Positions 31,609-50,603 of a stretch of 64,000 nt of DNA are shown piece by piece; the stretch's first letter is position 1; the number at the start of each line of letters is the position of its first letter. The translations under genes and the position numbers were made by a program. This stretch comes from Thermodesulfobacteriota bacterium (GTDB lineage: Bacteria > Desulfobacterota > Desulfobacteria > Desulfobacterales > SURF-7): the NCBI GenBank assembly GCA_049320885.1, contig JBMORA010000039.1, forward strand, positions 32,288 to 96,287, read 5' to 3'. The notes below the pieces were generated by a model. It did no database searches. It had not been told where the DNA came from and worked only from the letters and a program-made list of their open reading frames with translations.

Positions 31609-31822
31609 GATGATCCTCCTTTTTGGGAAAAGCATAACGATGGGAACGAACGAATGACAACTGATGGTGTTGGGGATTACAATACCGGCAAAAAAAGGAA
31701 ATCTCCGGTCATAAGGAAAGTATGATGGACCGGATCATTTTATATACTTTATAGCCTAAACGACCGGGAAAATCAATCGCGAATTCCGACGCCGAAGGAA
31801 AGACAAGCCGACCGTGGATTCA

Positions 31823-33044: not shown

Positions 33045-33428
33045 TTATTCGTCGACCTCGCCCGCGCCCACCAGGGGGAGTTCCTTATCGACTTTAAAAA
33101 TCATTAAAAAGCGTTTGTGGTTATCGTCATCCGCATAGGTGCGCCGGCTGAGGGAGAGAATCCGATCATTGTCTCTTTCTTCCCGAACCTTGCATAAAAA
33201 CAGGCGTTTCCCTTTAAAACCAGGCCCTTCTTCAATAAAGAGATAAACGGCGAAGGGGTTGGTCTGCAGGTTGGAATGGGTCAGCCGGTCACGCATGATG
33301 AAGGCCAAGGTGCCGTCTTCGAGGATATGCGGTCGCGAATAAATGGCGGCATCCACCCTTCCATGATTGTCGGCGGTGGAAAGAACACCGGTTCCCTTGG
33401 TCTTTTCAAAGTATTCTTTGTAATTCAT
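33045..33428 (-). CDS. Pyridoxamine 5'-phosphate oxidase-like split-barrel protein
   Basis: GVLSTAD..G.V..A, NL..NP.A, G.RL. Confidence 0.75.
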   Translation of the reverse strand: MNYKEYFEKTKGTGVLSTADNHGRVDAAIYSRPHILEDGTLAFIMRDRLTHSNLQTNPFAVYLFIEEGPGFKGKRLFLCKVREERDNDRILSLSRRTYADDDNHKRFLMIFKVDKELPLVGAGEVDE

Positions 33429-33579: not shown

Positions 33580-34845
33580 CTATCGTCCGGTCTTCCGGCC
33601 GAAGGCGAAGGACGACAGGGATCGGTTGCGCGGTTGAAAGGTGTTGTCGGCCATTTCCCTGCGGACTACTTTTTGAAGGAGCCGAAACATTTTAAATTCC
33701 TGGGATTCATCCTGGTAAAACGTATCCCAGGCGTACTGAAGGAGCTCTTCCAGCCGGGAAGGGGTCATGTGCTTTGGCTGATAAACGACTTTGTCGGCGG
33801 AGTAAGCGTCCCAATCAAAGGAAAAAATCCGGTTCTGGCTGTTCAATTCATCAAAGGCCTTGGTGTGGGGAAAGGGCGTCAGCACGGTAAATTCGGCCAG
33901 ATCCAGTTCGATTTCGAGCAGAAAATCGATCAGGCGTTTGATATAGTCCTCGGTGTGGTGGTCAAGACCGAGGAGAACGGTGGCCTCCACGCCGATGCCG
34001 GCGTCATGATACCGCCGGATGCGATTTTTGATATAATCCGATGTATCGAAAACCGCCTGGTAGACATACCAGGCGCCGGCCTGGGCAGCCAGGTCCAGAA
34101 CCTCCGGATGATCCTCGATGGGATGGCAGCACCATTTTTTTTTCAGCGGGATCATTTCCCGGAAGAGATCTTTTTCCCATTGCCGGTCCTGGGACAGGGA
34201 GTTGTCCACCAGAAAAAGGCGGTTGTTTTGAATACCGGCCATTTCCGCGATCACCCGGTCGATGGGCCGGGGCCTGAATTGTTGCCCTCCGAGATAGGCC
34301 ACGGCGCAGGGATAGCAATGAAAACGACAGCCGCGGGAAGCATGGATCAGATCCACCATCTGCACACCGCGGTAATTATACAATTCATGCCGCAGGATAT
34401 CCCTGCGGGCCGGACCGACGAGATCGATGGGCGGGGGAGACGCCAGGTAATCATACACCTTCCGGAGATTTCCCGCCTGGAAATCGGCAAAAACCTGTTC
34501 CATATGGCCTTCGGCTTCACCCAGAAAGACGGCGTCCGCGTGCCGCATGGTTTCCTCGGCGTGCAGGGTGGCCGCTATTCCGCCGCAGATCACCGGCACA
34601 CCCTTGCGGCGATAGGTTCCGGCGATTTCCCAGCCGCGCTTCACCTGAATGGTGAGCATCATGGAGATGCCCACAAAATCAACCGGGTCATCGAAATCGA
34701 TGTCTTCCAGATTTTCGTCGACAAAAACAACATCCACATGGGGCGGCAGGGCGGCGGCGAACACCACGGGACCGTGGGGGGGCAAATGAAATTCCGTCTG
34801 CCGGTTCAAACGGCGCCATTTGGGGTAGATCAATTTGAATTTCAT
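33580..34845 (-). CDS. B12-binding radical SAM protein
   Basis: DEN...D.VGIS...GG..AT cobalamin domain; SRGCRFHCYPC; TPFPHT. Confidence 0.9.
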   Translation of the reverse strand: MKFKLIYPKWRRLNRQTEFHLPPHGPVVFAAALPPHVDVVFVDENLEDIDFDDPVDFVGISMMLTIQVKRGWEIAGTYRRKGVPVICGGIAATLHAEETMRHADAVFLGEAEGHMEQVFADFQAGNLRKVYDYLASPPPIDLVGPARRDILRHELYNYRGVQMVDLIHASRGCRFHCYPCAVAYLGGQQFRPRPIDRVIAEMAGIQNNRLFLVDNSLSQDRQWEKDLFREMIPLKKKWCCHPIEDHPEVLDLAAQAGAWYVYQAVFDTSDYIKNRIRRYHDAGIGVEATVLLGLDHHTEDYIKRLIDFLLEIELDLAEFTVLTPFPHTKAFDELNSQNRIFSFDWDAYSADKVVYQPKHMTPSRLEELLQYAWDTFYQDESQEFKMFRLLQKVVRREMADNTFQPRNRSLSSFAFGRKTGR

Positions 34846-34876
34846 GGAATCCGTTACCTGTCCATATATTTTGGTC

Positions 34877-35554
34877 TCATTCCAGCGGCAGGGCTTCCAC
34901 CAGGTGCATGGTCAGTTCATATCCGAAGAGGCCGTGGGCCTTCAACTTCAATGTTCCCGGCCACGGCGCCGATTTTTGAAACGAATCGGTCAGATCCGTG
35001 GCCGTCACCGAGCGCAGGATGGTTCCCTTGTCGTCATAGCGTTTCATGACCCAATCCCCGTTTTCCCGCATGGTAAGGTCGAGAAAGCCGCCGGCGGCCA
35101 GGTGATGACGGCAGGTTTCCTCGCCGTCCGGCAATCGCCCGTATTCCCTTTTGGTGGTTTCGGGGGGGAAAAAAATAAGCCGGATATCGTCCATCATTCC
35201 TTTTGCCAGCGCGGGAGAGTCGAAGGGTGCAACGGCGCGGTTGACCGCCAGGTCGCCGTTTTCAACAGCCGCCTCGAAGAGGACAAAGCCTTCCAGGGTC
35301 ATCAGGGCGCATCGGATGCCGGGCGGTTCGTCCTCAAGGATCATCAGGCCCTGGAGAAAAGCCTTGCGGCCGTCGGGGGCATCGGCTTCGATGGCGTGAA
35401 GCAGCTGCCATTTTCCGGTGGGGAACAGGTTCCGGCATTTCGCTGCCAGGGCTGTTTCCGCTGCGGAATTCTCCATGGGCGCGATTCGGGCAAGCGGTGA
35501 GGCGCAGGCGCAACACACCAGAATCAGGAGGAGGATGACCGGCTTGAGGTTCAT
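34877..35554 (-). CDS. Lipoprotein (DUF3261-like, typical of aryl polyene/ladderane-type clusters)
   Basis: Lipobox-like VCCAC; G.VLF...DIRLIF...YEL pattern; position next to LolA-like gene. Confidence 0.6.
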   Translation of the reverse strand: MNLKPVILLLILVCCACASPLARIAPMENSAAETALAAKCRNLFPTGKWQLLHAIEADAPDGRKAFLQGLMILEDEPPGIRCALMTLEGFVLFEAAVENGDLAVNRAVAPFDSPALAKGMMDDIRLIFFPPETTKREYGRLPDGEETCRHHLAAGGFLDLTMRENGDWVMKRYDDKGTILRSVTATDLTDSFQKSAPWPGTLKLKAHGLFGYELTMHLVEALPLE

Positions 35555-36174
35555 TGAATATCCCGGAAAACCTTCGCGGGGATTTTATCATTGGCTACCA
35601 CGTTTTGAAAAACGAGCTTGGTATACGAGTCGCTGCTTTCGTAAATGAGCACGGCGTCAATGATACCGATTTTGTCGGAGAGGATCAGTTCGATTTTTTC
35701 AATGAACGCGGCGAAGGCTTTTTCTTTCGGAATCAGGGTGATTTTGCGGTTGGGCTCCAGAACGGGGTCGAACGCCGGGTTGTCGCGGAACCGGCCGTTC
35801 AGCCAGCCGCTGATTTCCTGCAGAACGATCTGCATGGATTGCAGCTGGATTCCGGTGTCTTCCACCAGCTTGTCTTTCCGTTGAACGTAGTGTTTGAGAC
35901 GATCGTTGTCCACCATCAAAATGCTGCGGATGGGTGCTTCGTATTCCCAGCGCAGGGAGCCGGGGGCCTGATAGTAAAAGCGGCCCCTGGAAATCAACGG
36001 CCGGGCGAGAATCGCCATATGCTTTTCCTGAATGAATTCCGCCTGGATCGATGTCAGACGGCCGGCGGATTGCTGAATCGCGTCCCATGTCTCGGCCCAG
36101 CCGGGACAAAACAGGGCTGTCAGCAGTGCAAGGAAAAGCGCTGTCCGTTTGCGCGGGATCGGCTTTGCTTCCAT
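35551..36174 (-). CDS. LolA-like lipid/lipoprotein carrier
   Basis: A.F.QEK...SRG.F....PG.LRWEY..P; ATGA overlap with fabG. Confidence 0.88.
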   Translation of the reverse strand: MEAKPIPRKRTALFLALLTALFCPGWAETWDAIQQSAGRLTSIQAEFIQEKHMAILARPLISRGRFYYQAPGSLRWEYEAPIRSILMVDNDRLKHYVQRKDKLVEDTGIQLQSMQIVLQEISGWLNGRFRDNPAFDPVLEPNRKITLIPKEKAFAAFIEKIELILSDKIGIIDAVLIYESSDSYTKLVFQNVVANDKIPAKVFRDIQ

Positions 36175-36926
36175 CAAAACATGCCCCCATTCACGGAGAT
36201 CACCTGTCCGGTAATGTAGGATGCGTCTTCGGAGCATAAAAACCGCACTGTTCTGGCCACTTCCTCCGGTTTGCCGATCCGGGCCATGGGGATCAGGTTT
36301 TTTATATTGTCGAGGGGGATGTTCCGGGTCATATCGGTTTCGATAAGACCCGGCGCGACGACATTGATCCGGATTCCGAGCCGCGCCACCTCCGCGGCCA
36401 CCGATCGGCTGGCGCCGATCAGGCCGGCTTTGGCGGCGGAATAATTGGCCTGGCCGCGATTGGGTATGAGGGCGGAAACCGAGGCGATGGAGACGACGGC
36501 GCCCCGTTTTTGACGGATCATTTTTTCCAGCACGGGTTTGGTCATGTTGTAAAAACCGTTCAGACTGGTCTGGATCACCGCATCCCATTTCGGCCTGGGC
36601 ATCATGACAAACAGGCCGTCGGCGGTGATGCCGGCGTTATTCACCAGAATATCGACGGATTTCTTCCGGCCGGCAACATCGGCGACCGCCTGCCTGGCGG
36701 CCTCCATATCGCCGACATCAAACGCCATGGTTTCGCCGTCTCCGCCCGCTTCCCTCACCAGCTCCAGGGTTTTTTCCGCCCCCGGCGCATCGGATTTATA
36801 ATTGATGACGATGTAATATCCGCTGCGGGCCAGTTCGATGCTGACGGCCCGCCCGATTCCCCTGCTGCCGCCGGTGACGATGGCGACCGGTCCGGCCGGC
36901 TCCGATTTGTCCTGATTCCGTTCCAA
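36174..36926 (-). CDS. fabG: 3-oxoacyl-ACP reductase
   Basis: TGGSRGIG, NNAG, YSAAK, APG.I.T. Confidence 0.92.
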   Translation of the reverse strand: MERNQDKSEPAGPVAIVTGGSRGIGRAVSIELARSGYYIVINYKSDAPGAEKTLELVREAGGDGETMAFDVGDMEAARQAVADVAGRKKSVDILVNNAGITADGLFVMMPRPKWDAVIQTSLNGFYNMTKPVLEKMIRQKRGAVVSIASVSALIPNRGQANYSAAKAGLIGASRSVAAEVARLGIRINVVAPGLIETDMTRNIPLDNIKNLIPMARIGKPEEVARTVRFLCSEDASYITGQVISVNGGMF

Positions 36927-36947
36927 AGCTGTCTTCCTCTCCCGTTC

Positions 36948-37382
36948 CTAATCCGGTTGAAACAACTGCAACGTGGCCTCCGCGGCTCCGGCGCCGTCGA
37001 TGTCCGCTTGGCAGCGGACCTCCCTGAAATTTTCGAACTCGAAGTTATTTTCGGCCATTGCGATGATTTCCGCACCCAGTGGAATCCGTTGCATAAAGAA
37101 GCGCGCCTGTTTGATTCCCACCAGCCAGCCCGTCTTTTTCGAATCCAGGCCGTTTTTGCGAACACGGGCCCAGCCGTTGGCGATTCCCGCGGTTTGCGCC
37201 ATGATTTCAATCAGAATCAGGGAGTCCACGCTGATCCCTTCCACCAGCGGCCAGTCGGCGGATACGACGGACCGTGTCCTGGAGCGGATGTCGTCCAGCT
37301 CCAGAATGTCCTGGATCAGTCGCATCCGGCCGCGATGGGGCAACAGATCGTCAATGCCGATATGCCTCCAATCCATGGTCAT
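36948..37382 (-). CDS. Hotdog-fold 3-hydroxyacyl-ACP dehydratase (ApeP-like)
   Basis: LLPH...M.LI, IEIMAQ, G.LVG. Confidence 0.8.
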   Translation of the reverse strand: MTMDWRHIGIDDLLPHRGRMRLIQDILELDDIRSRTRSVVSADWPLVEGISVDSLILIEIMAQTAGIANGWARVRKNGLDSKKTGWLVGIKQARFFMQRIPLGAEIIAMAENNFEFENFREVRCQADIDGAGAAEATLQLFQPD

Positions 37383-37406
37383 TCATCACCCGCCTTTAAA
37401 AAAACA

Positions 37407-37435
37407 TTGAAAATAAGCCGGCGAATCTTTAGTAT
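37407..37435 (+). promoter_or_regulatory. sigma70-like promoter for the right arm of the lipid cluster
   Basis: TTGAAA-N17-TAGTAT. Confidence 0.5.
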
Positions 37436-37502
37436 CTATCGGCCACGTACCGGCGGCAAAGTACCGGCGGCTGACGGCCGGCCTCCCGTAACAATCGAAG
37501 GG

Positions 37503-37531
37503 ATGCTACAACAATTTAACCCTGCTGTAAA
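37503..37531 (-). promoter_or_regulatory. sigma70-like promoter for the left arm of the lipid cluster
   Basis: Minus strand TTTACA-N17-TAGCAT. Confidence 0.45.
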
Positions 37532-37566
37532 GCAACAAGCCCAAACGGCAAGGAACGGACGGTTGC

Positions 37567-37833
37567 ATGGAAGCGTTGCTGGAAGAACTGAAACACAAAA
37601 TTATCGACGTGCTGAATCTCACCGACATCACACCGGCGGATTTCAAAACCGATGAACAGCTCGTGGGCGGAGCCCTCGGTATCGATTCGATCGACGTGCT
37701 GGAAATGGTGATGATGATCGAAAAGGAATACGGTGTCATTATCGACAACAAGGAACTTGGGGAAAAGGTTTTCGCCACTTTGGGCGCCCTGGCGGCCTAT
37801 ATCCATGAACATTCCCCCCGGTTGCTCAATTGA
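37567..37833 (+). CDS. Acyl carrier protein 1
   Basis: LGIDSIDVLE phosphopantetheine motif; acidic, 88 aa. Confidence 0.93.
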   Translation: MEALLEELKHKIIDVLNLTDITPADFKTDEQLVGGALGIDSIDVLEMVMMIEKEYGVIIDNKELGEKVFATLGALAAYIHEHSPRLLN

Positions 37834-39998
37834 AACAAGGCCGGGCTTATATTCACGGCATGGGAGTGGTGAGCCCCCTCGGCTGCGGGGTCGAGGCCAC
37901 CCGAAAGGCGCTTCTGGACGGAAGCCGGTTTCTTAACCCCCTGGAATTGTTTCCGGTGCCCAAGGGAGAGCCGTTGCCGGTGGGCCAGGTCGCCATCCTG
38001 GAGCAGGATGAGAGGCTGCCGCGGACCCACCGTCTGGCAAGAATCGCGGCGGCCCAGGCCATGGCCGGCAAATCCGAATCGCCGGACGCCATCGTCATGG
38101 GGGTGACCACCGGCGGCATGGCGATGACGGAAATCCACCTGAAAAAACCGCATCCCCATCCGGGTCTTTTCACCCACCATGCCGTCTGTTCGGTTGCGGA
38201 AGATATTGCCGCGCTATACCACTGCCGGGGGCCGGTGATAACGGTTTCAACCGCCTGCTCATCGGGCGGCGCGGCCGTCAAGATCGCCCTGGAATTGATC
38301 CGCAACCGCAAGGCCACACGGGTACTGGCCGGCGGTGCTGATTCGCTGTGCCGTTTGACGTATTATGGATTTCTGTCCCTCCAATTGATCGATCCCCTGG
38401 GCGCCAGACCCTTGGATAAAAACCGCCGGGGGATGTCCGTGGCCGAGGCCGCCGCCATGTTGCTCCTGGTGGCCGATGAACCGGAGCGGGCGCTGGGTGA
38501 AATTCTGGGGGGCGGGCTTTCCTGCGATGCCTACCACCCCGCCGCCCCCCATCCCGAGGGTGAAGGCGCGTTGGCAGCCATGCGGGCGGCACTGGCGGAC
38601 GCCGGAATCGATTCCGGAGATATCGATTATATCAACCTGCACGGCACCGGGACCGTGGACAACGACCGCTCGGAGGCCAAGGCGATCCGGGCGCTTTTCA
38701 GCCCGCGAATTCCGTCGCTGTCATCCATCAAGGGGGCCTCCGGGCATTCCCTGGCGGCGGCCGGCGCCGTCGAAACGGTGGTTTCCGCAATGGCCATCGG
38801 ACAAGGTTTCATCCCCGCCAACACCGGCTGCGAACTTCCGGATCCTCTCCTGTCGATAGTTCCTCTGCGCGAGCCTCTGCCGGCGAAAGTGGAAACGGTA
38901 CTGTCCAATTCGTTCGGTTTCGGCGGTAATAATGCGGCGGTGGTCATCGGCGGGCCGGGGAGATCCTCCCGTTCCGAAACCTCCATCCGGAAACAGGTTT
39001 TGTCGGTCATCGGCAGCGCCTGCATCACCGGTCGGGGGGGGACGGAAATGACCATGGACGCGCTTCGCCGGGGTGAGGCGTGCGTCGGAACAGCAACCAC
39101 GGAGACCGTCGCGATTTCCCGGCCGCCTTCGGATATCCGGCGCCTGAAACGTCTTCCCCGTCTTTCGCTTGCTCTGGCCGATGCGGCGTTGCGGGATTGC
39201 GAACCTTTTCGAAATCCGGCGGCGGTGTTTTTCGGCACCGGCTGGGGCGCTCTGTCCGAAACCCATGATTTCCTGACACGGCTGCATGACACCGGGGAGC
39301 AATTTCCAAGTCCCACGGATTTTGTGGGCTCCGTTCATAATGCGCCGGCAGGAAGGGTAGCCATGTGGTGCCAGGCCCGGGGGCCCTGTGTAACGGCCAC
39401 CGGCGGGGATTATTCATTTGAGCAGGCCGTGTTCACCGCCGGACTGTGCGCACCCGGAGATGATGACTGCTTTCTGGTGATCGGCGCGGATGAAAACCAT
39501 AAGGTGCTGTCACCGTTGTTTGACCGGTCCCTGCTTTCCGGCGGGCTTCCTTCTGACGGCGGCGGCGCCTTTCTGCTGAGCAGGTCCCTGACGGCAGGAG
39601 CCTTGCAGATGGAACTGCGGTTTTATGAGAGCGCCGGCAACCATCCGGAGGTGATGGCGAAACTGCTGTCCGCATTGGGTGGAAAGAAGGCAATGGGGGA
39701 ACGGTATGGATTCATCATGGCGGGGATTCCCGGAGCGGAGAGAAAAACCGGTGAGCAGCAGCTGGAAAGCATGCTTTCCGGGGCGGATTTCCCAAATCCC
39801 GTGGTGGACTACCGCAAATGGATTGGCGAATTCGCATCGGCGTCCGCCGTGGCAGCCGTTGTGGCCATGAAATGCCTTCAGCAGGGGGTTCTGCCGGGGG
39901 CCCTCCGGAAAGGAGCGGACCTGGGCCTCGGTTCGCGGGGCGCCCTTATTGTCGGGCTGGGCCGGTTTGTCACGGCCCTGGAGATAATGCCCGGATGA
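37830..39998 (+). CDS. Beta-ketoacyl-ACP synthase fused to a chain-length-factor-like domain
   Basis: TACSS, HGTGT, KG..GH triad in the N-half; C-half RRL.R...SPT.F..SVHNA with no catalytic triad seen. Confidence 0.88.
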   Translation: MKQGRAYIHGMGVVSPLGCGVEATRKALLDGSRFLNPLELFPVPKGEPLPVGQVAILEQDERLPRTHRLARIAAAQAMAGKSESPDAIVMGVTTGGMAMTEIHLKKPHPHPGLFTHHAVCSVAEDIAALYHCRGPVITVSTACSSGGAAVKIALELIRNRKATRVLAGGADSLCRLTYYGFLSLQLIDPLGARPLDKNRRGMSVAEAAAMLLLVADEPERALGEILGGGLSCDAYHPAAPHPEGEGALAAMRAALADAGIDSGDIDYINLHGTGTVDNDRSEAKAIRALFSPRIPSLSSIKGASGHSLAAAGAVETVVSAMAIGQGFIPANTGCELPDPLLSIVPLREPLPAKVETVLSNSFGFGGNNAAVVIGGPGRSSRSETSIRKQVLSVIGSACITGRGGTEMTMDALRRGEACVGTATTETVAISRPPSDIRRLKRLPRLSLALADAALRDCEPFRNPAAVFFGTGWGALSETHDFLTRLHDTGEQFPSPTDFVGSVHNAPAGRVAMWCQARGPCVTATGGDYSFEQAVFTAGLCAPGDDDCFLVIGADENHKVLSPLFDRSLLSGGLPSDGGGAFLLSRSLTAGALQMELRFYESAGNHPEVMAKLLSALGGKKAMGERYGFIMAGIPGAERKTGEQQLESMLSGADFPNPVVDYRKWIGEFASASAVAAVVAMKCLQQGVLPGALRKGADLGLGSRGALIVGLGRFVTALEIMPG

Positions 39999-41344
39999 AT
40001 GTGCTGCTGCTTTCCGCCAATACGCTCACCGAACCCTATCCGGTTTATCCCCTCGGGCTGGATTATGTCGCCGCTGCGCTGAGGCCGGGTCACCGGGTAA
40101 GGATTGCGGATATGAATATCCTCGGCGATGGAGAATCCCTGATTCGGGAGGTCCTCCGGGAGCCGCCGGAAGTGATCGGGATTTCCCTGCGGAACGCGGA
40201 CAATACCGACGCCGCCGATCCGAAAAGTTTTCTGCGGGAATACCGGGAGGTCATTGCCCTCATCCGCCGTCATTCCAGTGCCCTGATTGTTCTCGGCGGG
40301 AGCGGCTTCACGATTTTCCCGGAACAATTCATGGAAGAGCTGGACGCTGATTACGGAATCGTCGGTGAAGGCGAAAGAATGGCGCTTCTACTGGATGCCA
40401 TCGAACACGGCGGCGATGCGGCAACCATTCCGGGCGTCGTCGGCCGACGCACCCGGGCATGGAAGGCCGGTCCCTGGGAACGGCCGTTCGTCAGGGACTT
40501 CAACAGCCGGAGCGAGCATCTCGGGTTTTACCTGAAAAAGGGCGGGATGTTGAATATTCAGACCCAAAGAGGATGTCACTTCAAATGCATTTACTGCACA
40601 TACCCGCATGTGGAAGGACGTTCCCTGAGGCTGTTGCCCCCCGCCGAGGTGGCCCGCACGGCCCTCGATTTGCAAAGAGCCGGCGCAAGATATCTGTTTA
40701 TCACCGATTCGGCCTTCAATGCCGATATTGATCACAGCATGGCCGTGGCCCGGGCTTTCAAGGAAGCCGGCTTGAAAATTCCCTGGGGCGCCTTTTTCGC
40801 TCCCGTCGGATTGCCGGCGGATTATTTCCGGTGCATGGCTGAAGCCGGTTTGACCCATGTGGAATTCGGCACCGAGTCGCTGGCGGATCCGGTTCTCGCC
40901 GCATACCGCAAACCGTTTCGGAAAGCGGATATATTCGAGGCCCATCGGGCGGCGGTGGCGGCCGGTCTGTTCGTGGCCCATTACTTCCTTCTGGGGGGGC
41001 CGGGTGAGAGCTCCGGCACCATCGCCGAGACCCTTGCGGATGTTGACAAGCTGAAACGAACTGTTTTATTTTTTTTCTGTGGCATGCGGATTTATCCCAA
41101 CACGGCATTGTACGATCTGGCCGGCCGGGAGGGATTGATCGGGAGTCATGGCGACATTTTACATCCTGTATTTTATCGCAACAAGGCCCTGGAAGCTATC
41201 GACATCATCGGCATGGTCCAACTTGCCGCCCGGCAAAGACCCAACTGGGTGGTCGGATCGGGGGGCGGAGATACGGCCCGGGTTATCGCCAGGTTGTATG
41301 AACGCGGCTATACGGGGCCTCTTTGGGAGCATTTGATTCGATAG
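39995..41344 (+). CDS. Lipid-biosynthesis B12-binding radical SAM protein
   Basis: PYPVYPLGL...GISLRN.D, GGSGF; RGCHFKCIYC; MRIYP.T. Confidence 0.9.
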   Translation: MNVLLLSANTLTEPYPVYPLGLDYVAAALRPGHRVRIADMNILGDGESLIREVLREPPEVIGISLRNADNTDAADPKSFLREYREVIALIRRHSSALIVLGGSGFTIFPEQFMEELDADYGIVGEGERMALLLDAIEHGGDAATIPGVVGRRTRAWKAGPWERPFVRDFNSRSEHLGFYLKKGGMLNIQTQRGCHFKCIYCTYPHVEGRSLRLLPPAEVARTALDLQRAGARYLFITDSAFNADIDHSMAVARAFKEAGLKIPWGAFFAPVGLPADYFRCMAEAGLTHVEFGTESLADPVLAAYRKPFRKADIFEAHRAAVAAGLFVAHYFLLGGPGESSGTIAETLADVDKLKRTVLFFFCGMRIYPNTALYDLAGREGLIGSHGDILHPVFYRNKALEAIDIIGMVQLAARQRPNWVVGSGGGDTARVIARLYERGYTGPLWEHLIR

Positions 41345-41353
41345 CGAGCGAAC

Positions 41354-41731
41354 ATGTGGCATACCGTCAAGCATATCCCCCGTCTGGAAACGGCCGAAAA
41401 AGAGGCGGAAGCGCAAATCGGGCCGGATTCTCCCTGGTTCGAGGGTCATTTTCCGGATGATCCCGTCGTCCCCGGCGTGGCCCAACTGGGAATGGTGCTG
41501 GAAGCCCTCCGGCAGCTCCGGCAACAATCCCTCACCATTACGGAGATCAGGCGGATTCGATTCCGCCGCATTATTCGGCCGAATGAACCGATCCGCATTT
41601 TTACCACGGAGACAAGCGGACGGGTTGACACGGTGGGCTTTCGCATTATGGTTGATGAAGAGATGGTCTGTAACGGCATGATGGTGGTGAAGGCGGCGAA
41701 CTTGACCTTAGGTGAAAATAAACGTATATAA
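41354..41731 (+). CDS. FabA/FabZ-like hotdog dehydratase (ApeI-like)
   Basis: WFEGHFP..PVVPGVAQL. Confidence 0.85.
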   Translation: MWHTVKHIPRLETAEKEAEAQIGPDSPWFEGHFPDDPVVPGVAQLGMVLEALRQLRQQSLTITEIRRIRFRRIIRPNEPIRIFTTETSGRVDTVGFRIMVDEEMVCNGMMVVKAANLTLGENKRI

Positions 41732-41778
41732 ATAAATTTTAATAATCGTATGACGGAATAAGAAGGAGAATCGAACGG

Positions 41779-42045
41779 ATGTCGACGGTTAGCGATATTG
41801 AAAAAATCATGTTGCGGGTTGCGGAAATAATGATCGACGAGCTCAAACTGGAAGATGTCACCCCCCGGACCTTCAATCCGGACATCGACCTGGTGGATGA
41901 AGTGGGCATCGACAGCATGGACCTTGCGACCGTGGCCCTGGTTCTTCGAGATGAATACGGCATCCGGATCGACGAGGATGATTACCCCAAGCTGACCACC
42001 ATTCGATTGATTTCCGCGTATATCAAGAACAAACTATCGGCCTGA
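41779..42045 (+). CDS. Acyl carrier protein 2
   Basis: VGIDSMDL motif; RBS AAGGAG. Confidence 0.9.
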   Translation: MSTVSDIEKIMLRVAEIMIDELKLEDVTPRTFNPDIDLVDEVGIDSMDLATVALVLRDEYGIRIDEDDYPKLTTIRLISAYIKNKLSA

Positions 42046-42060
42046 TCAGGGCCGGAACGA

Positions 42061-43209
42061 ATGATGAACCGCAATCAATTTCGGATTCGGGTCCTCGATC
42101 AAAAAACGGAGAAGACCACATTGCGCGCCCTCAACATTGAACCCATCGAAGCGAGCCGTCGTCCGCACAAAACGGAATGGAGGTTTTCCGATCTGATTGC
42201 GGATCCGCTCGTGCGGGAACGCTGGGAAAGAGTCCGCGGTTATTTTTTTCTGCGGGAATCCACCTATGACATGACCAACCGCTGCAACATCCGCTGCGAA
42301 GGCTGCTACTACTACGAAGGGGACAAGCAGTTCGCCGCCGAAAACAGGGACGGGAACGCCTGGCGCGAACTGATGAAATCGGAAAAGGAGCGGGGGATCA
42401 CGTTCGTGGTGCTGGCCGGGGCGGAACCGTCGCTTGTGCCGGAGCTTTGTGAGATTTGTTATCGGGAAATTCCGTTGGGCGCCATCGCCACCAATGGCTT
42501 GAAACGCATTCCGGAGACAGTTGATTATAAAATCCATATCTCGGTCTGGGGAAACGATGAAACCAGCCTGAGAGTCCGAAAGGCCAAGGACATGCTGCTC
42601 CGGCAGATCGACAATTATCGCCATGATCCGCGCGCTGTCTTCATCTATACCTTTACGCGGGAAAATATCCGGCAGACGGAGGAAGTGTTCGAAATTTTGG
42701 CCCGGAACGGCTGTAAGGCCAGTTTCAACATGTTTTCCGCCCCGGTGGGATACAGGGGCGATCTCCGCCATACCGCCGAATCGCTTCAGGCTACGCGCGA
42801 CATGATGATCCGCCTGCTGAACCGATATCCGGACAATGTGTTGTTTTCCCGCTATAACGCCGTCGCCCACACCCATCCGCGCAGCCTGCATGATCTGTTC
42901 GGCTGTCTGTATCCGCGCATGAACCCTTCGGCCGGCATGGGGCTTGGTCGTTCTTTCCGTCAATACCGCACGGACCTTACCTGGGACAAGCAGGCGGCCT
43001 GCTGCGTGCCGGACACCGATTGCTCCGACTGCCGTCATTATGCCGCGGGGAGCGCGGTGGTGACCGCCAAATTATACCGCCATGCAATTGATCCGGAAAC
43101 CTTCCGTTCCTGGCTGGATTATGCGGATACCTACCTCGGCGTATGGGTGAGGGGCTATAAAAAAGGGCGCAATTTGTGCCATCAGGTGATTTCACCGCCT
43201 GAAAAATGA
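42061..43209 (+). CDS. Radical SAM protein A
   Basis: YDMTNRCNIRCEGC; GAEP; C-terminal CC...CxxC. Confidence 0.88.
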   Translation: MMNRNQFRIRVLDQKTEKTTLRALNIEPIEASRRPHKTEWRFSDLIADPLVRERWERVRGYFFLRESTYDMTNRCNIRCEGCYYYEGDKQFAAENRDGNAWRELMKSEKERGITFVVLAGAEPSLVPELCEICYREIPLGAIATNGLKRIPETVDYKIHISVWGNDETSLRVRKAKDMLLRQIDNYRHDPRAVFIYTFTRENIRQTEEVFEILARNGCKASFNMFSAPVGYRGDLRHTAESLQATRDMMIRLLNRYPDNVLFSRYNAVAHTHPRSLHDLFGCLYPRMNPSAGMGLGRSFRQYRTDLTWDKQAACCVPDTDCSDCRHYAAGSAVVTAKLYRHAIDPETFRSWLDYADTYLGVWVRGYKKGRNLCHQVISPPEK

Positions 43210-43226
43210 GGGCAAGGAGCCGGTTG

Positions 43227-44225
43227 ATGAAGACGGTCAGTACGCTGTTGGACAAGGAATGGCATGCACGCTACAGCCGTATTTCGAAACTGAATATCCG
43301 CAGTTCGATATATGACGTGACCAATCGCTGCAATCTGCGTTGCAAGGGATGCTTCTTCTTTTCTTCGGGCGAGCACAAGGCGGCCGTCGAGGAGAACGAT
43401 CTCGCAAAATGGGAGGCCTTCATTGAAAAGGAAAAAAGCCGGGGGGTGAACCTGGCCATCCTGATCGGCGGGGAGCCGACGCTATGCCTGGATCGAGTGG
43501 AGGCTTTTTACAAGCGGATGCCCACATTCTGCGCAACAAACGGTCTGATCAAGGTTCCCCGGGATCGGTTTCCGGACATGATGGTGGGAATTTCCGTCTG
43601 GGGAGATGAAAACGACGAGAAGCTCCTTCGGGGGAAGGACACTTTTTCCATATCCCGCGAGAACTATGCGGGTGATCCCCATACGTATTATCTGTATACC
43701 ATCACGCCGAAACAGATCGGAAAAACCGAACGGGTGATCCGCAAAATCCGGGACGTGGGCCTGAAAGTGCACATGCAGCTGTTGTCCAATGACGAGGGGG
43801 TGAATGGTTTCTCCTGGTCTCCACAGGAACTTGCGGCCATCCGTACGGAAATGGACGCCATGCTAGAGGCTTACCCCGGCACGGTGATTTCGTCCAAATA
43901 TTATCATGAAATCATCACCAGCGGAAAAATGATGGACCGGCGGTTCGGCTGGATGGAATGTCCATCCGTCACCGATGCGCTGGACAATCGGGAACCGCGT
44001 CCCCGGCGCCTGACGAATTTCATCCGCTGGGCCTCGGATTTGAAAACCATGCACCGCTGCTGCACGTCGGAGACCCGGGACTGCGCGACCTGCAAGGATG
44101 GCGCGGCTCATATGAGCTGGGTAATGGTGAACAAACGGGCCCACATGCGTTCCACCAGGGATTTGCAAAACTGGATAGAAGTATATGAAATGTTTGCGAA
44201 ATTATATCAATTCATACCCTGGTAA
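43227..44225 (+). CDS. Radical SAM protein B (paralogue of A)
   Basis: YDVTNRCNLRCKGC; GGEP; C-terminal CC...CxxC; alternative start 43206. Confidence 0.88.
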   Translation: MKTVSTLLDKEWHARYSRISKLNIRSSIYDVTNRCNLRCKGCFFFSSGEHKAAVEENDLAKWEAFIEKEKSRGVNLAILIGGEPTLCLDRVEAFYKRMPTFCATNGLIKVPRDRFPDMMVGISVWGDENDEKLLRGKDTFSISRENYAGDPHTYYLYTITPKQIGKTERVIRKIRDVGLKVHMQLLSNDEGVNGFSWSPQELAAIRTEMDAMLEAYPGTVISSKYYHEIITSGKMMDRRFGWMECPSVTDALDNREPRPRRLTNFIRWASDLKTMHRCCTSETRDCATCKDGAAHMSWVMVNKRAHMRSTRDLQNWIEVYEMFAKLYQFIPW

Positions 44226-44230
44226 GGGGC

Positions 44231-45481
44231 ATGGGATCAACAACAGCGGTCATCGTCGGGTTTGATGCGGTCTCCCCGCTGGGGCTTGCCTGGGAAGAAC
44301 AGTGGGCGCGGGCTGTCCGGGGTGAAAGCGGCATCGGTGTGCTGACGCGTTTTCCCCTGACGGAAGATTTCCCGGTTCGAATCGCCGGCCAGGCGCCGGA
44401 TATCGACCGGTTGGACTATCCGTTTCTGCGACCCCGGGAACAGGCCTGCTGGCGTTCTCCGGTTTTCAAGTATGCGCTTCTGACGGTTCAGCGGGCGCTT
44501 GAAAAGAGCGGACTTGAAATTACGGCGGACATCGCCAGGCGGGTGGCGGTTACCTACAGCTCCGCCATCGGCGGCATCGATGCCGTTCTGCATGCCGACC
44601 GGCTGATGATTTCAGACGGGAAATGGCCTCATCCGTATACCAATCCCAACGCCTGCATCAACATGGTCGGAGGCAAGATTTCCATGCATACCGGCGCCAC
44701 CGGGCCCATTACCGCCACCATCACGGCTTGCGCCACCGGTGTGACCTCCATGATCATCGGCGCCATGCTCCTGAAGGAAGGGCGGGCGGATGTGGCCATT
44801 TGCGGCGCCGTGGATTTTGCCCTGGTGGAACCCATCGTGGCTGGTTTCGCCACCATGAACGGGGCCTATGCTCCGAAAGAAGGCCAGGCGGATGAAACTC
44901 CCGCGCAAGCCAGCAGGCCGTTTTCCGTCAACCGCAGGGGCTTTGTCATTGCCGAAGGAGCTGGCGCGGTCATTCTCGCCACCAGAGAATTCGCCCGGGC
45001 CAATGGCCTGAAGCATTCCGTTGAGATCGCCGGCTGGGGGATGACCTCGGATGCCCATCATTTTGTGGCGCCGCATCTGGAAACCGTGCGCGACTGCATG
45101 GACATCTGTCTCACCCATGCGGGAATTCAACCCCGGGATGTTCAGGCGGTCAATGCGCATGCGACTTCCACGCGGATCGGCGACAAAGTCGAATATGAGG
45201 CCCTGCGGAATGTTTTTTCCGGCAGGATTCCGCCGGTGACGGCGAACAAATCCCTTTTCGGGCACGCTATGGGGGCTTCCAGCGCCATCGAATCCGTATT
45301 TGCCATTCAGGGGATGATGGCGGACAAACTGCCTCCGACCATCAATTACCGCCCGGACCCGGAAATGGAGCTGGATTGCGTTCCGGATGAACACCGGTCG
45401 CTGGTTCAGGAACACGTACTGAAAAATGCGTTCGGTTTTGGCGGTTGTAACTCATGTGTGGTTTTTAGAAGGACGGAATAA
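44231..45481 (+). CDS. FabF-type beta-ketoacyl-ACP synthase
   Basis: TACATG, NAHATST, KS.FGH, NAFGFGG. Confidence 0.92.
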   Translation: MGSTTAVIVGFDAVSPLGLAWEEQWARAVRGESGIGVLTRFPLTEDFPVRIAGQAPDIDRLDYPFLRPREQACWRSPVFKYALLTVQRALEKSGLEITADIARRVAVTYSSAIGGIDAVLHADRLMISDGKWPHPYTNPNACINMVGGKISMHTGATGPITATITACATGVTSMIIGAMLLKEGRADVAICGAVDFALVEPIVAGFATMNGAYAPKEGQADETPAQASRPFSVNRRGFVIAEGAGAVILATREFARANGLKHSVEIAGWGMTSDAHHFVAPHLETVRDCMDICLTHAGIQPRDVQAVNAHATSTRIGDKVEYEALRNVFSGRIPPVTANKSLFGHAMGASSAIESVFAIQGMMADKLPPTINYRPDPEMELDCVPDEHRSLVQEHVLKNAFGFGGCNSCVVFRRTE

Positions 45482-45493
45482 AGGCTGATTGTT

Positions 45494-46759
45494 ATGAGAC
45501 CGCCGCTGAACAGACGCGTTTTTGTTGTTGGATATGGTGCGGCGACGCCGCTCGGCAGCACGTTTGCAAGGACCTGGGACCGGGCGGTGAAAGGGGAGGC
45601 CGGGTTCCGCAAAGTGACCCGCTGTGAAGTGAAAACCCGCAGCAACGTGGTGGGAGAAATCCCGGATTGGAATCCGCTCTCCATGGACTTCATTGACCGC
45701 AAGGAAGCCCACAACTGGGATGCGGATTTTGTCCTCCTGACCATGGCGGTTTGCCGGGAGGCCCTGATGCATTCCGGGCTTGAGATGAACATGGAAACCG
45801 CGCCGCGCACGGCCTGCCTGATCGGTTCGGCCCTGAACGGAACCGATGCGTTCCGCATCGCCATGGAAAACTACGCCGCCAAAGGACCTTATAAAGTCAG
45901 TCCCTATCTGCTGCCGAATCTTTGCGCCAATCTGCCTGCCGGTAAAGCCGGCATGCTGCTGGGATTCACCGGGCCGATTTTTTCACCCCAGGGCGCCTGC
46001 GCTTCGGGTAATCACGCCATCGGAATCGGGGCCAGAATGATCCGGGACGGCGATTGCGATTTCGTCCTGGCGGGAGGGGTCGACACCTGTCTTGTGCCGG
46101 AAATCATCCAGGGATTCGCCAATATGTCCGCAACCATCAAGATAAACCCGGATGACCGGGCCTTTCTCGACCCAACCCAGGCTTCCCGGCCATTCAGTAT
46201 CGACCGGAAGGGAATTGTCCTTTCCGAAGGCGGCGGAGTGGTGGTGCTGGCGGCCCATGACACCTTGAAAACCTGGGGTCTGATACCCAGAGCCGAGGTC
46301 CTGGGGGTGGGGTGGACATCGGATGCCTATCATTTCACGAGACCCAATGCGGCGACCATCGTCCGGGCGATCCGGAGCGCCATCGAGGACGCCGGATTGC
46401 AGCCCGGGGATATCCAGTATGTGAACGCCCACGGCACGTCCACCATGAAAGGGGACGCCACGGAAGTGGAGTGTCTGCGAACCGTTTTCGACGGACTGCT
46501 GGAAAAGATACCCGTATCGTCCAATAAAAGCCAGATCGGTCATACCCTCGGGGCCTCAGCGGCCATCGAGGCGGCCCTGAGCATTGAGGCCATGCAGCAG
46601 GGGGTGATTCTACCGACGGTCAATCATATACCGGATCCGGTCCTTTTCGATGTCGATGTGGTTCCCAACACCACCCGGCGTCAGCGCTACGAGATGTTTC
46701 TTTCCAATGCCTTTGGATTTGGTGGAACCAATTGCTGTATTGTTTTTCGGGGGGTTTGA
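45494..46759 (+). CDS. FabF-type beta-ketoacyl-ACP synthase
   Basis: GACASG, NAHGTST, KSQIGH, NAFGFGG. Confidence 0.92.
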   Translation: MRPPLNRRVFVVGYGAATPLGSTFARTWDRAVKGEAGFRKVTRCEVKTRSNVVGEIPDWNPLSMDFIDRKEAHNWDADFVLLTMAVCREALMHSGLEMNMETAPRTACLIGSALNGTDAFRIAMENYAAKGPYKVSPYLLPNLCANLPAGKAGMLLGFTGPIFSPQGACASGNHAIGIGARMIRDGDCDFVLAGGVDTCLVPEIIQGFANMSATIKINPDDRAFLDPTQASRPFSIDRKGIVLSEGGGVVVLAAHDTLKTWGLIPRAEVLGVGWTSDAYHFTRPNAATIVRAIRSAIEDAGLQPGDIQYVNAHGTSTMKGDATEVECLRTVFDGLLEKIPVSSNKSQIGHTLGASAAIEAALSIEAMQQGVILPTVNHIPDPVLFDVDVVPNTTRRQRYEMFLSNAFGFGGTNCCIVFRGV

Positions 46760-46760
46760 G

Positions 46761-47240
46761 GTGCGGCCGAAACCGTTTGTCGCGGAATGGATCGATGGAG
46801 ATGGGCGCTATGTGCGGAATAAAACCGACGGAAGTGTCTGGCATCGCTGCATGCACCGGACCCTCTACGCGGACACGGATCGTTCCCAGGTGGTTTATCA
46901 CGCCAACTATTTGCGATATTTTGAATTCGGTCGGGCATCACTGATGCGTGACGCCGCCTATCCATACAGGGAAATCGAGGAAAACGGCTATGTCTATCCC
47001 ATCATCGAGATCGGGATCACGTATCACAGCCCCCTGTATTATGACGACGCCATGTGGATTCACACCCGTCCGGCTGCGATGGAAAGGGTCCGGCTGCAAT
47101 TCGATTATGTCATTGTTCATGAGAAAACAGGCGCGATTGTCTGCAAAGGGTTCACCCGGCATTGTGCCACGAACCGGGCCGGGGTTCCCGTGGGGGTGGA
47201 TGACAAAACAGTTCATTTATGGGAAGTATTTCCAAAATAA
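46761..47240 (+). CDS. YbgC/4HBT-type acyl-CoA/ACP thioesterase
   Basis: YADTD...VVYHANYL.YFE.GR; GTG start approximate. Confidence 0.88.
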   Translation: MRPKPFVAEWIDGDGRYVRNKTDGSVWHRCMHRTLYADTDRSQVVYHANYLRYFEFGRASLMRDAAYPYREIEENGYVYPIIEIGITYHSPLYYDDAMWIHTRPAAMERVRLQFDYVIVHEKTGAIVCKGFTRHCATNRAGVPVGVDDKTVHLWEVFPK

Positions 47241-48118
47241 TAACGGAACTCCGTCTGCCGATAACGGTATCCGTTCCCGCTTACCTGATGGACCATCGCT
47301 TTGACGGTGTGACGGTTATGCCGGCGGTGGAAGCCATGCAGATATTGGCCGCTTCCGTGCGGACGGTTTTTCCCGATATCCGGGTGCGAACGATACGGAA
47401 TGCCATTTTTGAAAAATTTTTATATATTGAACCCGGCTCCAGGATGTTTTCGGCGTTCTGTGACCTGACGCGGTATGAGAACGGGGAGGTGGCCGCCCGG
47501 CTCCAGACGAAATTCCGGAGCGGCCGATCGGCCATCACCCGGCTGAAGGAACATGCGTCGCTTTGTTTTTCAGCGCAACGGGCGCAAGGGGGTGCCGGCG
47601 TTTCCCCGATGCAGCCGGATCCCGGGGAACTGACGATTGCCCCGGAAAGAATTTACCGGGAGCTGGTTCCTTTCGGTCTGTCGTATCATAACATAGCGGA
47701 ACCGATAACGCTTTTTCGCTCCGGCGTGCGCGCCGTGGTCCGTGCGGCCGAGCTTGCCGGAAACGGCGTTTTGCCGGAGTTGCTGGGGTCACCCTTCCCG
47801 CTGGATGCGGCTTTTCACGCCGCCTGCGTCTGGGGGCAGCGTTTCGGCGGGATGGTCGCCTTTCCGGTGGGCTTTGAGTGCCGGGAGATCGTCCTGCCGA
47901 CCCGACCGGGCGGTTTGTATCATGCGGTCGTAACGCCGCTGCCGCCACAGGGGGCGGGGATACTGACATTTGACCTCCGGATAGAGACCCTGTCCGGAGA
48001 ATGCTGCGAGGCGGTATGGGGGGTCCGTATGCGGGATGTCAGCTCCGGACAAATCAAACCGCCGGCCTGGATCACCATCAGCCATGAGGGTAATCATGAA
48101 AGTGTTTTTTCACAGTGA
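47219..48118 (+). CDS. Stand-alone polyketide-synthase-type (double-hotdog) dehydratase
   Basis: L.DH...G...MP (HxxxGxxxxP), IY...V.FG..Y, LDAAFH. Confidence 0.8.
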   Translation: MGSISKIITELRLPITVSVPAYLMDHRFDGVTVMPAVEAMQILAASVRTVFPDIRVRTIRNAIFEKFLYIEPGSRMFSAFCDLTRYENGEVAARLQTKFRSGRSAITRLKEHASLCFSAQRAQGGAGVSPMQPDPGELTIAPERIYRELVPFGLSYHNIAEPITLFRSGVRAVVRAAELAGNGVLPELLGSPFPLDAAFHAACVWGQRFGGMVAFPVGFECREIVLPTRPGGLYHAVVTPLPPQGAGILTFDLRIETLSGECCEAVWGVRMRDVSSGQIKPPAWITISHEGNHESVFSQ

Positions 48119-48857
48119 TTTTTATTCGGAATATACATCGGATCCGGCGGCGGAAGCCGGTAGGATGGAGGCGATCCTCCGGATTATCGAGACGGAAGTA
48201 ACCATGATGGATATCGAGCTCGCCGGAGAGGAAGACATCGCCGCCGTGCATAGTCCTGATCATATCCGCCGGATCAAGGAAAGCGGTTTGTACGGAATTG
48301 CGGCCCTTGCAGCGGGCGGCGCCATCCAGGCAGCCCTGACCGGACTTTCCGAACCGGCATTCGGCCTGATTCGTCCTCCCGGGCATCATGCCTCGGCCGG
48401 TTCGGCGTGGGGGTTCTGTTTTTTCAACAATATGGCCATCGCCATTGACAAATTGAAGCGGGAAGGCCGGATCGAAACCGCCTATGTGCTGGACATCGAC
48501 ATGCACCATGGAGACGGAACGGAAAACATTCTGGGGCAGTCATCCTGGGTGACGATCCACAATGTCGCCACCCGCAATCGACAGGCATACATCGCCGAGG
48601 TTCAGCGGGCCATGGACTCCTGCGGAGCGGACATCATCGGCATTTCCGCGGGGTTTGACAACCATCAGAAGGATTGGGGCGGGGTATTGACAACGGAGGA
48701 CTACACCACCATCGGACGGTTGGTAAGGAAAGCCGCGGACCGGAAAGGAGGGGGTTGTTTCGGCATCCTGGAAGGCGGGTACAACCATGATGTGTTGGGT
48801 CAAAATGTATTGGCCTTGATTCAGGGGCTTTCCAACCAGACGGAATCAGTGATATAA
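48096..48857 (+). CDS. Histone deacetylase-family (Zn-dependent amidohydrolase) protein
   Basis: RPPGHHA, GFCFFNN, DIDMHHGDGT, SAGFD, LEGGY. Confidence 0.92.
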   Translation: MKVFFHSDFYSEYTSDPAAEAGRMEAILRIIETEVTMMDIELAGEEDIAAVHSPDHIRRIKESGLYGIAALAAGGAIQAALTGLSEPAFGLIRPPGHHASAGSAWGFCFFNNMAIAIDKLKREGRIETAYVLDIDMHHGDGTENILGQSSWVTIHNVATRNRQAYIAEVQRAMDSCGADIIGISAGFDNHQKDWGGVLTTEDYTTIGRLVRKAADRKGGGCFGILEGGYNHDVLGQNVLALIQGLSNQTESVI

Positions 48858-50589: not shown

Positions 50590-50603
50590 GGCGCACCGAT
50601 CAA

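Follow-up and report, generated by a model that had tools for sequence, protein, structure and literature searches.

Aryl-polyene (ape) and flexirubin gene clusters, as in Escherichia coli CFT073, Xenorhabdus doucetiae and Acinetobacter baumannii (product APEL), encode a ketosynthase (KS) and chain-length factor (CLF), an ApeR-like KS, several acyl carrier proteins (ACPs), ApeI/ApeP dehydratases, an ApeQ/FlxB-like reductase, LolA-like and DUF3261 proteins, a thioesterase, acyltransferases, a glycosyltransferase and an RND/MMPL exporter, with no enoyl reductase in the cluster. The lipid that ape genes make consists of glycerol-phosphate-GalNAc carrying three acyl chains, and two ACPs serve in its synthesis; ApeN is a DUF3261 protein, and ApeM, ApeL and ApeN have been proposed as exporters (10.1101/2020.12.19.423268). 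A second group comprises the extended clusters for fatty acid synthesis of type II (FAS II) in anammox bacteria (the kuste3352-3335 type, and Cluster I, kuste3603-3608) and clusters of Desulfotalea, Geobacter and Pelobacter, which the accessible text of Rattray et al. 2009 (PMC2649909) describes as syntenic to the anammox type, with no ladderanes in Desulfotalea. According to the accessible text of 10.64898/2026.05.19.726425, Cluster I has so far not been connected with ladderanes by direct evidence, and that of PMC9902471 states that the function of the 'ladderane-like' clusters of non-anammox bacteria is unknown. Here we describe a block of 16 genes in a 64,000-nucleotide stretch (hereafter the window) of a Thermodesulfobacteriota bacterium (contig JBMORA010000039.1, positions 32,288 to 96,287). 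It has likenesses to both groups and holds in addition a conserved cassette around two radical S-adenosylmethionine (SAM) enzymes of an unnamed family, rSA and rSB.

The block lies at 33580-48118 of the window, with five genes on the minus strand (left arm) and 11 on the plus strand (right arm). A preliminary description of the locus had given the genes in the order, on the strands and with the domain types that we find, but had counted 15; it was also right about the tight packing into two divergent arms and about the active-site motifs. Gaps between neighbors range from -22 to +47 nt, with a single divergent gap of 184 nt (37383-37566) that presumably holds the promoters and shows weak sigma-70-like matches (9/12). 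GC content in 2-kb steps (0.55-0.63) is like that of the rest of the window. All four radical SAM enzymes carry CxxxCxxC. The Cys-His-His triads of the three KS domains are invariant in near-full-length homologues: C143/H271/H306 of the KS-CLF in all 25, C167/H310/H345 of FabF1 in all 51 and C169/H313/H350 of FabF2 in all 47. Reading of the sequence refined four start codons (36174 for the LolA-like gene, 39995 for the TIGR04072 gene, 46761 for the thioesterase and, probably, 43227 for rSB).

The block is real and is conserved across many sulfate-reducer-type bacteria. A scan of GTDB contigs with rSA gave 96 relatives, of which the best 80 loci were kept, so that the set is biased to close kin; for each gene, only loci with room for it were counted. 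Most hosts of these best 80 loci belong to Desulfobacterales, Syntrophales and Desulfocapsaceae; the titles of a few records name Myxococcales, Leptospirales or Planctomycetota. All 16 genes occur together in 11 of the 36 loci that are long enough, and the block is therefore not due to chance. Cultured carriers of the rSA/rSB pair include Desulfosarcina widdelii, Desulforhopalus sp. IMCC35007, Desulfococcaceae HSG9 and NaphS2. In the open-access literature, whose coverage leaves out most subscription papers, we found no description of the twin-enzyme cassette, of its link to a fused fatty-acid kinase (see below) or of a product, in agreement with the earlier view that the product is undescribed.

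The genes of the block differ in how constantly they are kept. Besides rSA, the loci hold ACP2 (73/74), rSB (74/76), FabF1 (56/66), FabF2 (51/58), the thioesterase (47/54), the polyketide synthase (PKS)-type dehydratase (44/53) and an ApeI-like dehydratase (61/71), the last directly 5' of ACP2 in most loci. The other arm is less constant: the TIGR04072 gene is found in 36 of 67 loci, KS-CLF in 29 of 61, ACP1 in 36 of 56, FabG in 27 of 53, LolA in 22 of 51, the lipoprotein in 19 of 47 and the B12-binding enzyme B12a in 19 of 44. The block therefore consists of two modules, which amends the preliminary description. The constant module is ACP2-rSA-rSB-FabF1-FabF2-thioesterase-dehydratase; the second, judged by sequence similarity, is ape-like and comprises KS-CLF, ACP1, the ApeI/ApeP dehydratases, FabG, LolA, the DUF3261 lipoprotein and two B12 radical SAM enzymes. 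Median identity to the window is 81% for rSB, 75% for FabF2 and ACP2, 70% for rSA and 53% for KS-CLF.

The constant module begins with ACP2 (41779-42045, plus strand as are all genes of this module), a PP-binding protein that is predicted to be the dedicated carrier of the cassette; in a sequence search of PDB no special carrier stood out for it. It is followed by rSA (42061-43209) and its paralogue rSB (43206-44225), the most conserved gene of the block. Two diverged FabF-type KSs come next, FabF1 (44231-45481; 339 bits against TIGR03150, cut-off 494) and FabF2 (45494-46759; 373 bits), which are 40% identical and sisters in a quick tree (SH-aLRT 99). This tree was used for the sister relation only (its row amx236_cl1_KS is actually an inactive CLF partner). 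FabF1 comes nearest to Bacillus FabF. A hotdog thioesterase of the YbgC/FadM family (46761-47240, likely GTG start; TIGR00051 80.5 bits, cut-off 68.7) and a stand-alone PKS-type double-hotdog dehydratase (47219-48118) complete the module; the latter has weak PKS_DH_N and PS-DH matches, both below cut-off, conserved His26 and Asp196, and no PDB sequence match.

rSA and rSB are 30% identical to each other, and five C-terminal cysteines (C282, C314, C315, C321 and C324 in rSA) are invariant in 80 of 80 rSA and, at the same places, in 75 of 75 rSB sequences. Each enzyme is predicted to hold a SAM-binding cluster and a C-terminal auxiliary Fe-S cluster. The assignment of each radical SAM enzyme by profile hidden Markov models, which the preliminary description had suggested, succeeded for the product of 39995-41344 (TIGR04072, a named lipid-cluster family), but rSA, rSB and B12a reach no curated NCBIfam cut-off. 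Neither rSA nor rSB has a Pfam SPASM (PF13186) match at E 0.01; a radical SAM enzyme encoded elsewhere in the genome, on contig C38, does. The structural model of rSB (pLDDT 84; its C-terminal cysteine part is the least confident, at 67-77) comes nearest to twitch/SPASM enzymes, with Z 13.6 for SkfB, 13.5 for BlsE, 12.4 for anSME and 10.6 for GDGT-MAS. With these enzymes (SkfB 6efn, BlsE 7vob, anSME 4k36, SuiB 5v1q, Z 12-14; GDGT-MAS/Tes 7tom, Z 10.6) rSA and rSB share a partial TIM barrel, CxxxCxxC and a cysteine-rich C-terminal extension. They differ from the twitch/SPASM enzymes by low identity (13-15%), a motif of their own (C...CC-x5/6-C-x2-C) and a predicted acyl-ACP substrate rather than a peptide or nucleoside.

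A scan of 1.84 billion representatives returned 508 proteins when the threshold was E 0.001 and 34 when it was 1e-30. Out of 150 matches listed, 57 (300-430 aa, or fused to a thioesterase) were used for an alignment of distant relatives, in which three of the C-terminal cysteines are kept in >90% of the rows, and a quick family tree was made of 59 sequences. No characterised member of the rSA/rSB family turned up among these distant relatives; a PDB sequence search with rSA gave weak motif matches only, and in the ESM Atlas only unnamed radical SAM clusters matched. One distant relative (P0132) is a radical SAM enzyme fused to a thioesterase domain, and others, in four plasmid records, are encoded beside ACP, nonribosomal peptide synthetase (NRPS) or hotdog genes, which points to thioester-bound substrates. 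For example, a Methylomagnum plasmid (L091:10335-19127) encodes an ACP, a TauD dioxygenase, an rSA/rSB-family enzyme and an NRPS. A three-gene plasmid unit of a ferritin-like PaaA/C protein, an rSB-family enzyme and a MaoC/PaaI hotdog protein is found in Alteromonas, Burkholderia, Tistrella and Enterobacter (L089:19180-21535; L090:14246-16643; L092:11896-14595); this unit is mobile and has close relatives in Streptomyces and Sorangium. We rejected a link to the bleomycin family, suggested by the Alteromonas plasmid match, as the match lies in this three-gene unit with no NRPS-PKS within 20 kb. Sponge SwfC was rejected as a family member (it is a B12-type enzyme), and the one 'longer' homologue (P0271) was dropped, as it looks like a frameshifted rSB read-through into FabF1. 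P0170, a radical SAM protein with an AMP-binding part, may have arisen by the same kind of error and was given no weight.

The second module supplies counterparts, all within the window, of eight ape proteins (ApeE, O, C, I, P, Q, L and N). On the plus strand, ACP1 (37567-37833) is an ApeE-like PP-binding protein with a DSID motif (PRK09184 69.6 bits, cut-off 70), and it is followed by a single-chain KS-CLF fusion (37830-39998; PRK09185 295.7 bits, cut-off 407) that resembles ApeO plus ApeC and also the anammox FabF2/FabFmut pair. Its model folds confidently (pLDDT 92) into a single KS-CLF didomain whose closest fold is that of PfaC KS-CLF (TM 0.83); the CLF half has no catalytic Cys motif. 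The best PDB matches are 9s5h_B and 7f28_B for the KS half and 9s5h_C and 7f28_A for the CLF half, with 6qsp lower for both; we take 7f28 and 6qsp to be ApeO-ApeC structures and 7f27 to be ApeR. After the B12-binding radical SAM enzyme of TIGR04072 (39995-41344; lipid biosynthesis, rSAM_ladder_B12) comes an ApeI/FabZ-like dehydratase (41354-41731) with a conserved catalytic His32 and with Pfam FabA and ApeI-like matches above cut-off. On the minus strand are an ApeP-like hotdog dehydratase subunit (36948-37382; Pfam ApeP-like 31.9 bits, cut-off 27), an ApeQ/FlxB-like FabG ketoreductase (36174-36926; 294.6 bits against PRK05653, cut-off 273, and 301.6 against FlxB, cut-off 340), an ApeL-like LolA carrier (35551-36174; Pfam LolA, best NCBIfam match flexirubin LolA2 with 97.5 bits, cut-off 125) whose likely start overlaps the FabG stop, an ApeN-like DUF3261 lipoprotein (34877-35554; E 5e-4, just below cut-off; Cys17 conserved) and the 421-aa B12a (33580-34845; Pfam B12-binding and Radical_SAM; C173/177/180).

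Certain genes are found repeatedly next to the block in other genomes, and their orthologues in the source genome lie on two further contigs, C9 and C38. The C9 locus (C9:147781-157265) encodes a B12 radical SAM enzyme, a PlsC acyltransferase, an ApeR-like KS (best PDB matches 4ewg and 7f27; PRK09116 396 bits, cut-off 470), an ACP, an LpxL-like acyltransferase, GT2, a small lipoprotein, a DAK2-DegV fusion and a thioesterase. The C38 locus (C38:15320-28650) encodes a B12 radical SAM enzyme, GT25, an MMPL-methyltransferase fusion and a deacetylase (these three at 20223-24992) and the SPASM radical SAM enzyme. In six genomes (G199, G148, G012, G078, G157 and G051), window genes and those of the C9/C38 type alternate within a single cluster, and C9/C38-type genes adjoin window genes in loci L067-L077. 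By this comparison the block does hold lipid pathway genes but makes up no more than a part of a pathway that numbers about 30 genes, whose putative export, acyl-transfer and sugar genes are on C9 and C38. Together these genes cover most of the ape gene table, as far as it is given in the accessible text of PMC8253772. The transporter and carrier set also matches that of ape, with LolA and DUF3261 (below cut-off) in the window and the co-occurring MMPL gene off the block on C38. The present system has three ACPs (ACP1, ACP2 and that of C9) versus two for the known three-acyl ape product. It further differs from ape clusters in the fusion of KS with CLF, the several radical SAM enzymes, the extra ACP2-rSA-rSB-FabF-FabF-thioesterase-dehydratase cassette, the fused fatty-acid kinase, the methyltransferase fused to the exporter, the lack of an aromatic starter ligase tied to the cluster and the spread of the genes over three contigs.

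The fused kinase is the gene that follows the rSA/rSB pair most closely. It is a FakA+FakB (DAK2-DegV) single-chain fusion (G000:C9:155128-156843; L083:17126-18844, minus strand) and shares with FakA/FakB of Staphylococcus and Streptococcus the DAK2 kinase domain with its conserved N-terminal motif, the FakA middle domain and the DegV binding domain. Unlike them, it is one chain, belongs to a Gram-negative anaerobe and is tied to a specialised biosynthetic cassette, not to scavenging of host fatty acids. FakA/FakB convert fatty acids to acyl-phosphate, according to the accessible text of PMC10848957. Out of 201 genomes of the phylum, the rSB profile matched 15, 14 with both paralogues and one (G034) with a single distant copy, and the Fak fusion is present in exactly those 14 (E 1e-80). 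MMPL is found in 12 and the C9 B12 enzyme in nine of the 14, neither of them outside, and the CLF half in nine plus one weak outsider (G135); TIGR04072 is wider (45/201). Among 151 genomes of the order, rSB occurs in 44 and Fak in 43 (both in 42, rSB alone in two, Fak alone in one, neither in 106); the three discordant genomes are drafts and stay negative at relaxed thresholds. The link between rSB and Fak holds at a distance, the genes being 230 kb apart in G613 and on separate contigs in G000, G591 and G630. In another genome the rSB copy (G620:C6:217534-218553) has five stop codons and only a partial kinase is found, at a contig start; pathway decay or an assembly error are possible causes.

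We consider it somewhat probable, by analogy with the ape system, that the block and the C9/C38 genes make an anaerobe counterpart of the aryl-polyene glycophospholipid that bears one more acyl chain, modified by the radical enzymes; this chain would be built on ACP2, re-activated by the kinase and attached to the anchor. The support in hand consists of genes, motifs, synteny and co-occurrence, and from these we infer every chemical step. By homology to ApeE/O/C/Q/I/P, ACP1, KS-CLF, FabG and the ApeI/ApeP-like dehydratases would make a conjugated polyene acyl chain, which the B12 radical SAM enzymes may methylate or cyclise. ACP2, FabF1, FabF2, the shared FabG and a dehydratase would make a second chain. 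By analogy with twitch/SPASM enzymes, rSA and rSB may abstract hydrogen from this ACP-bound chain and oxidize it by two electrons (C-C ring closure or desaturation) without O2; because the KSs form a tandem sister pair and so do the radical SAM enzymes, this might happen twice in succession. The thioesterase would then release the acid, and the C9 DAK2-DegV fusion would re-activate it as acyl-phosphate; alternatively, the kinase may load a fatty-acid starter. As judged from ApeD/J/M/L/N, the PlsC-like and LpxL-like acyltransferases and the glycosyltransferases of C9 and C38 could assemble the glycolipid, and the MMPL, LolA-like and DUF3261 proteins could move it outward to the outer membrane. 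A bolder proposal, which we offer tentatively and do not hold probable, is that rSA and rSB are a new radical SAM class that forges rings or cross-links in an ACP-tethered fatty chain, so that about three in ten Desulfobacterales genomes would encode a ring fatty acid in an outer-membrane glycolipid.

The polyene part of this proposal goes back to the preliminary description, which had argued from the lack of an enoyl reductase. There is indeed none among the 16 genes, and this fits a polyene for the ape-like KS-CLF arm. The argument is weaker for the ACP2/FabF arm, because its KSs are FabF-like and reductases from elsewhere in the genome might act in trans: we found no FabI in the genome, but did find a FabL-like short-chain dehydrogenase/reductase (SDR) on C49, five FabK-like genes (below cut-off) and PfaD on C43. 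The first lies in a five-gene FAS-like operon (C49:38492-42967; L082:6493-10968) of FabL-like SDR, FabH-like, FabG, FabZ-like and diverged KS genes; the last belongs to a Pfa-type iterative polyunsaturated fatty acid synthase locus (C43:3645-19291; L085) of PfaD, PfaA (two overlapping open reading frames) and PfaBC.

Several observations weigh against the glycophospholipid proposal. The small dehydratases and FabG pass the cut-offs of Pfam ApeI-like, Pfam ApeP-like and PRK05653, but KS-CLF, ACP1, the FlxB-like match of FabG and LolA2 all score lower than the curated thresholds of the families that they match best, and their assignment to ape is therefore made through the closest relative. Neither an orthologue of ammonia lyase nor an ApeH-like ligase could be tied to the cluster in this genome (for the HAL query used, the highest match is 35%). 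The fold matches, at 13-18% identity, give a branch of the superfamily and not a reaction. Kinship inflates the co-occurrence counts, as does physical linkage in many genomes, and the counts vary with the E-value thresholds used. KS-CLF is not found in five of the 14 pair-bearing genomes, and the cassette stands without ape-like neighbors in L038, L057, L062 and L072; the ACP2 chain therefore need not end on the same lipid as the polyene.

These last observations lead to a rather unlikely alternative, in which the cassette and the Fak fusion work on their own to make an unusual fatty acid of the bulk membrane (by O2-independent desaturation, cyclisation or tail-to-tail coupling), which passes via acyl-phosphate into ordinary phospholipids, the ape-like genes being frequent neighbors that share no product with it. 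The far greater constancy of the cassette, the close tracking of it by Fak, the very high conservation of rSB and the closeness of FabF1 and FabF2 to canonical FabF would all suit such a route. PlsY uses acyl-phosphate, and a PlsY-type gene is beside the cassette in seven of the 80 loci. However, the MMPL orthologue occurs only where the pair does, the ApeI-like dehydratase directly precedes ACP2 in most loci, the distribution is patchy (44 of 151 genomes of the order) and a canonical FabF/ACP locus exists elsewhere in the genome.

That no ammonia lyase or ligase could be tied to the cluster would be accounted for if the cassette were a starter factory, in which a small, radical-cyclised ring acid replaces the 4-hydroxybenzoate head group and KS-CLF extends it to a polyene; the thioesterase and kinase would serve as a route of release and re-loading. 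We find this improbable, as five pair-bearing genomes are without a detected KS-CLF and an ammonia lyase does coexist with the cassette in G199, G051, G078, L026, L035 and L046. Two AMP-ligases of the source genome are near the MMPL locus on C38 but are not assigned to the pathway; they lie at C38:28720-35818 (L088) together with an unassigned 455-aa protein, an FAD oxidoreductase and the genome's second TIGR04072 enzyme, which at 358 bits is close to the cut-off. The third TIGR04072 match in the genome is at C1:63819-65051.

Two-protein lipoyl synthases are a model for paired sulfur insertion, and rSA and rSB are likewise paired, adjoin an ACP, each have extra conserved cysteines and are followed by a thioesterase. 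It is nevertheless very unlikely that they are a sulfur-insertion or cofactor-maturation system acting on acyl-ACP2, or that the product is a released small molecule and not a lipid: lipoyl- and biotin-synthase families are not among the NCBIfam matches of rSA and rSB, these folds rank below the twitch/SPASM enzymes for the rSB model, and the pair co-occurs with lipid assembly and export genes.

The kinship of the locus to anammox clusters, as well as to ape clusters, had been proposed at the outset along with a type II FAS/PKS and radical SAM lipid pathway, and is borne out in part. It is limited, by sequence comparison, to KS-CLF and the B12 enzymes (31-36% identity), and does not extend to the twin pair. 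Like the anammox clusters and those of Desulfotalea, Geobacter and Pelobacter, the locus mixes FAS II genes with B12 radical SAM enzymes, has a TIGR04072 member and has a KS with an inactive CLF. The TIGR04072 gene scores 382.1 bits (cut-off 360; model positions 1-443), which is marginal next to the 540-670 bits of the top members, and the other three radical SAM enzymes of the block are far below this cut-off. Five genomes with two hydrazine-synthase-alpha matches each were taken as anammox-type. Three of them carry a cluster whose gene order fits the kuste3352-3335 list in the accessible text of PMC4790861. The TIGR04072 gene is 35-36% identical to the gene at the kuste3342 position of the anammox-type loci, and the C38 SPASM enzyme 43-46% to that at the kuste3343 position. 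To Cluster I-type loci, identity is 32% for KS, 28% for CLF (over 107 aa) and 31% for B12a. The architecture of a KS with an inactive FabF paralogue is that of the Cluster I heterodimer 9s5h, but fused; 9s5h chain C and the inactive FabF paralogue of one anammox-type genome are in essence the same protein (905 bits). The locus differs from the anammox clusters in gene order, in having the rSA/rSB cassette and in having no phytoene dehydrogenase: no homologue is among the 16 genes, and the best match in the genome to a cluster-type query is 24%. In all five anammox-type genomes the rSA/rSB profile gave N-terminal motif matches only (E 1e-10 to 1e-14, positions 27-147), and the pair was not found by this search. 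That the block makes ladderane-type cyclobutane lipids as anammox bacteria do is, in spite of the TIGR04072 membership, the 9s5h matches of both KS-CLF halves and the B12a similarity, very unlikely and the least credible reading, given identities of only 28-36%, a phytoene-dehydrogenase orthologue that is absent from the block and was not found elsewhere in the genome, no twin pair found in the anammox-type genomes, a Desulfotalea with a related cluster that yielded no ladderanes in the accessible text of PMC2649909, and TIGR04072 in 45 of 201 genomes of the phylum.

B12a has closer kin elsewhere, as it is 57-63% identical to a gene beside the top-scoring TIGR04072 members in the clusters of G184, G096 and G027. 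rSA/rSB are not in these loci (G096 holds the pair elsewhere), and the cassette was not found in the genomes G184, G027 and G194, which have top-scoring TIGR04072 clusters. The window type is therefore a known lineage plus a further cassette: related deltaproteobacterial clusters have been known in outline since 2009, and the twin-enzyme cassette is the further addition.

Genes flanking the block were considered as parts of it and rejected. A histone-deacetylase-family gene (48036-48857, plus strand) overlaps the 3' end of the PKS-type dehydratase gene, and is linked to the block in only two of the 80 loci, the two closest relatives (L006 and L025). A FadL/OmpP1-family outer-membrane transporter gene (30196-31635, minus strand), 2 kb off the block, is beside it in none of the 80, and a metallophosphoesterase gene and the gene at 33045-33428 are beside it only in L006. 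Further downstream, 49891-52799 (minus strand) holds an ordinary pair, a large gene that looks like anaerobic ribonucleotide reductase from its translation and its radical SAM activase.

The cassette presents a very conserved, unnamed pair of radical enzymes that comes with an ACP, ketosynthases, a thioesterase and a kinase of its own; 44 of the 151 genomes sampled from one order have it, and cultured strains do as well. With the full gene set in view across three loci, the product can be found by comparison of carrier with non-carrier strains. This knowledge could open up new C-H chemistry that needs no oxygen and provide a lipid biomarker, and would help to explain the 'ladderane-like' clusters of non-anammox bacteria as the accessible text of PMC9902471 presents them. 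If rSA and rSB do prove to be a ring-forming class, they would reveal an unrecognised lipid class of anoxic habitats and allow ladderane-like chemistry to be studied in a tractable model whose hosts can be cultured.

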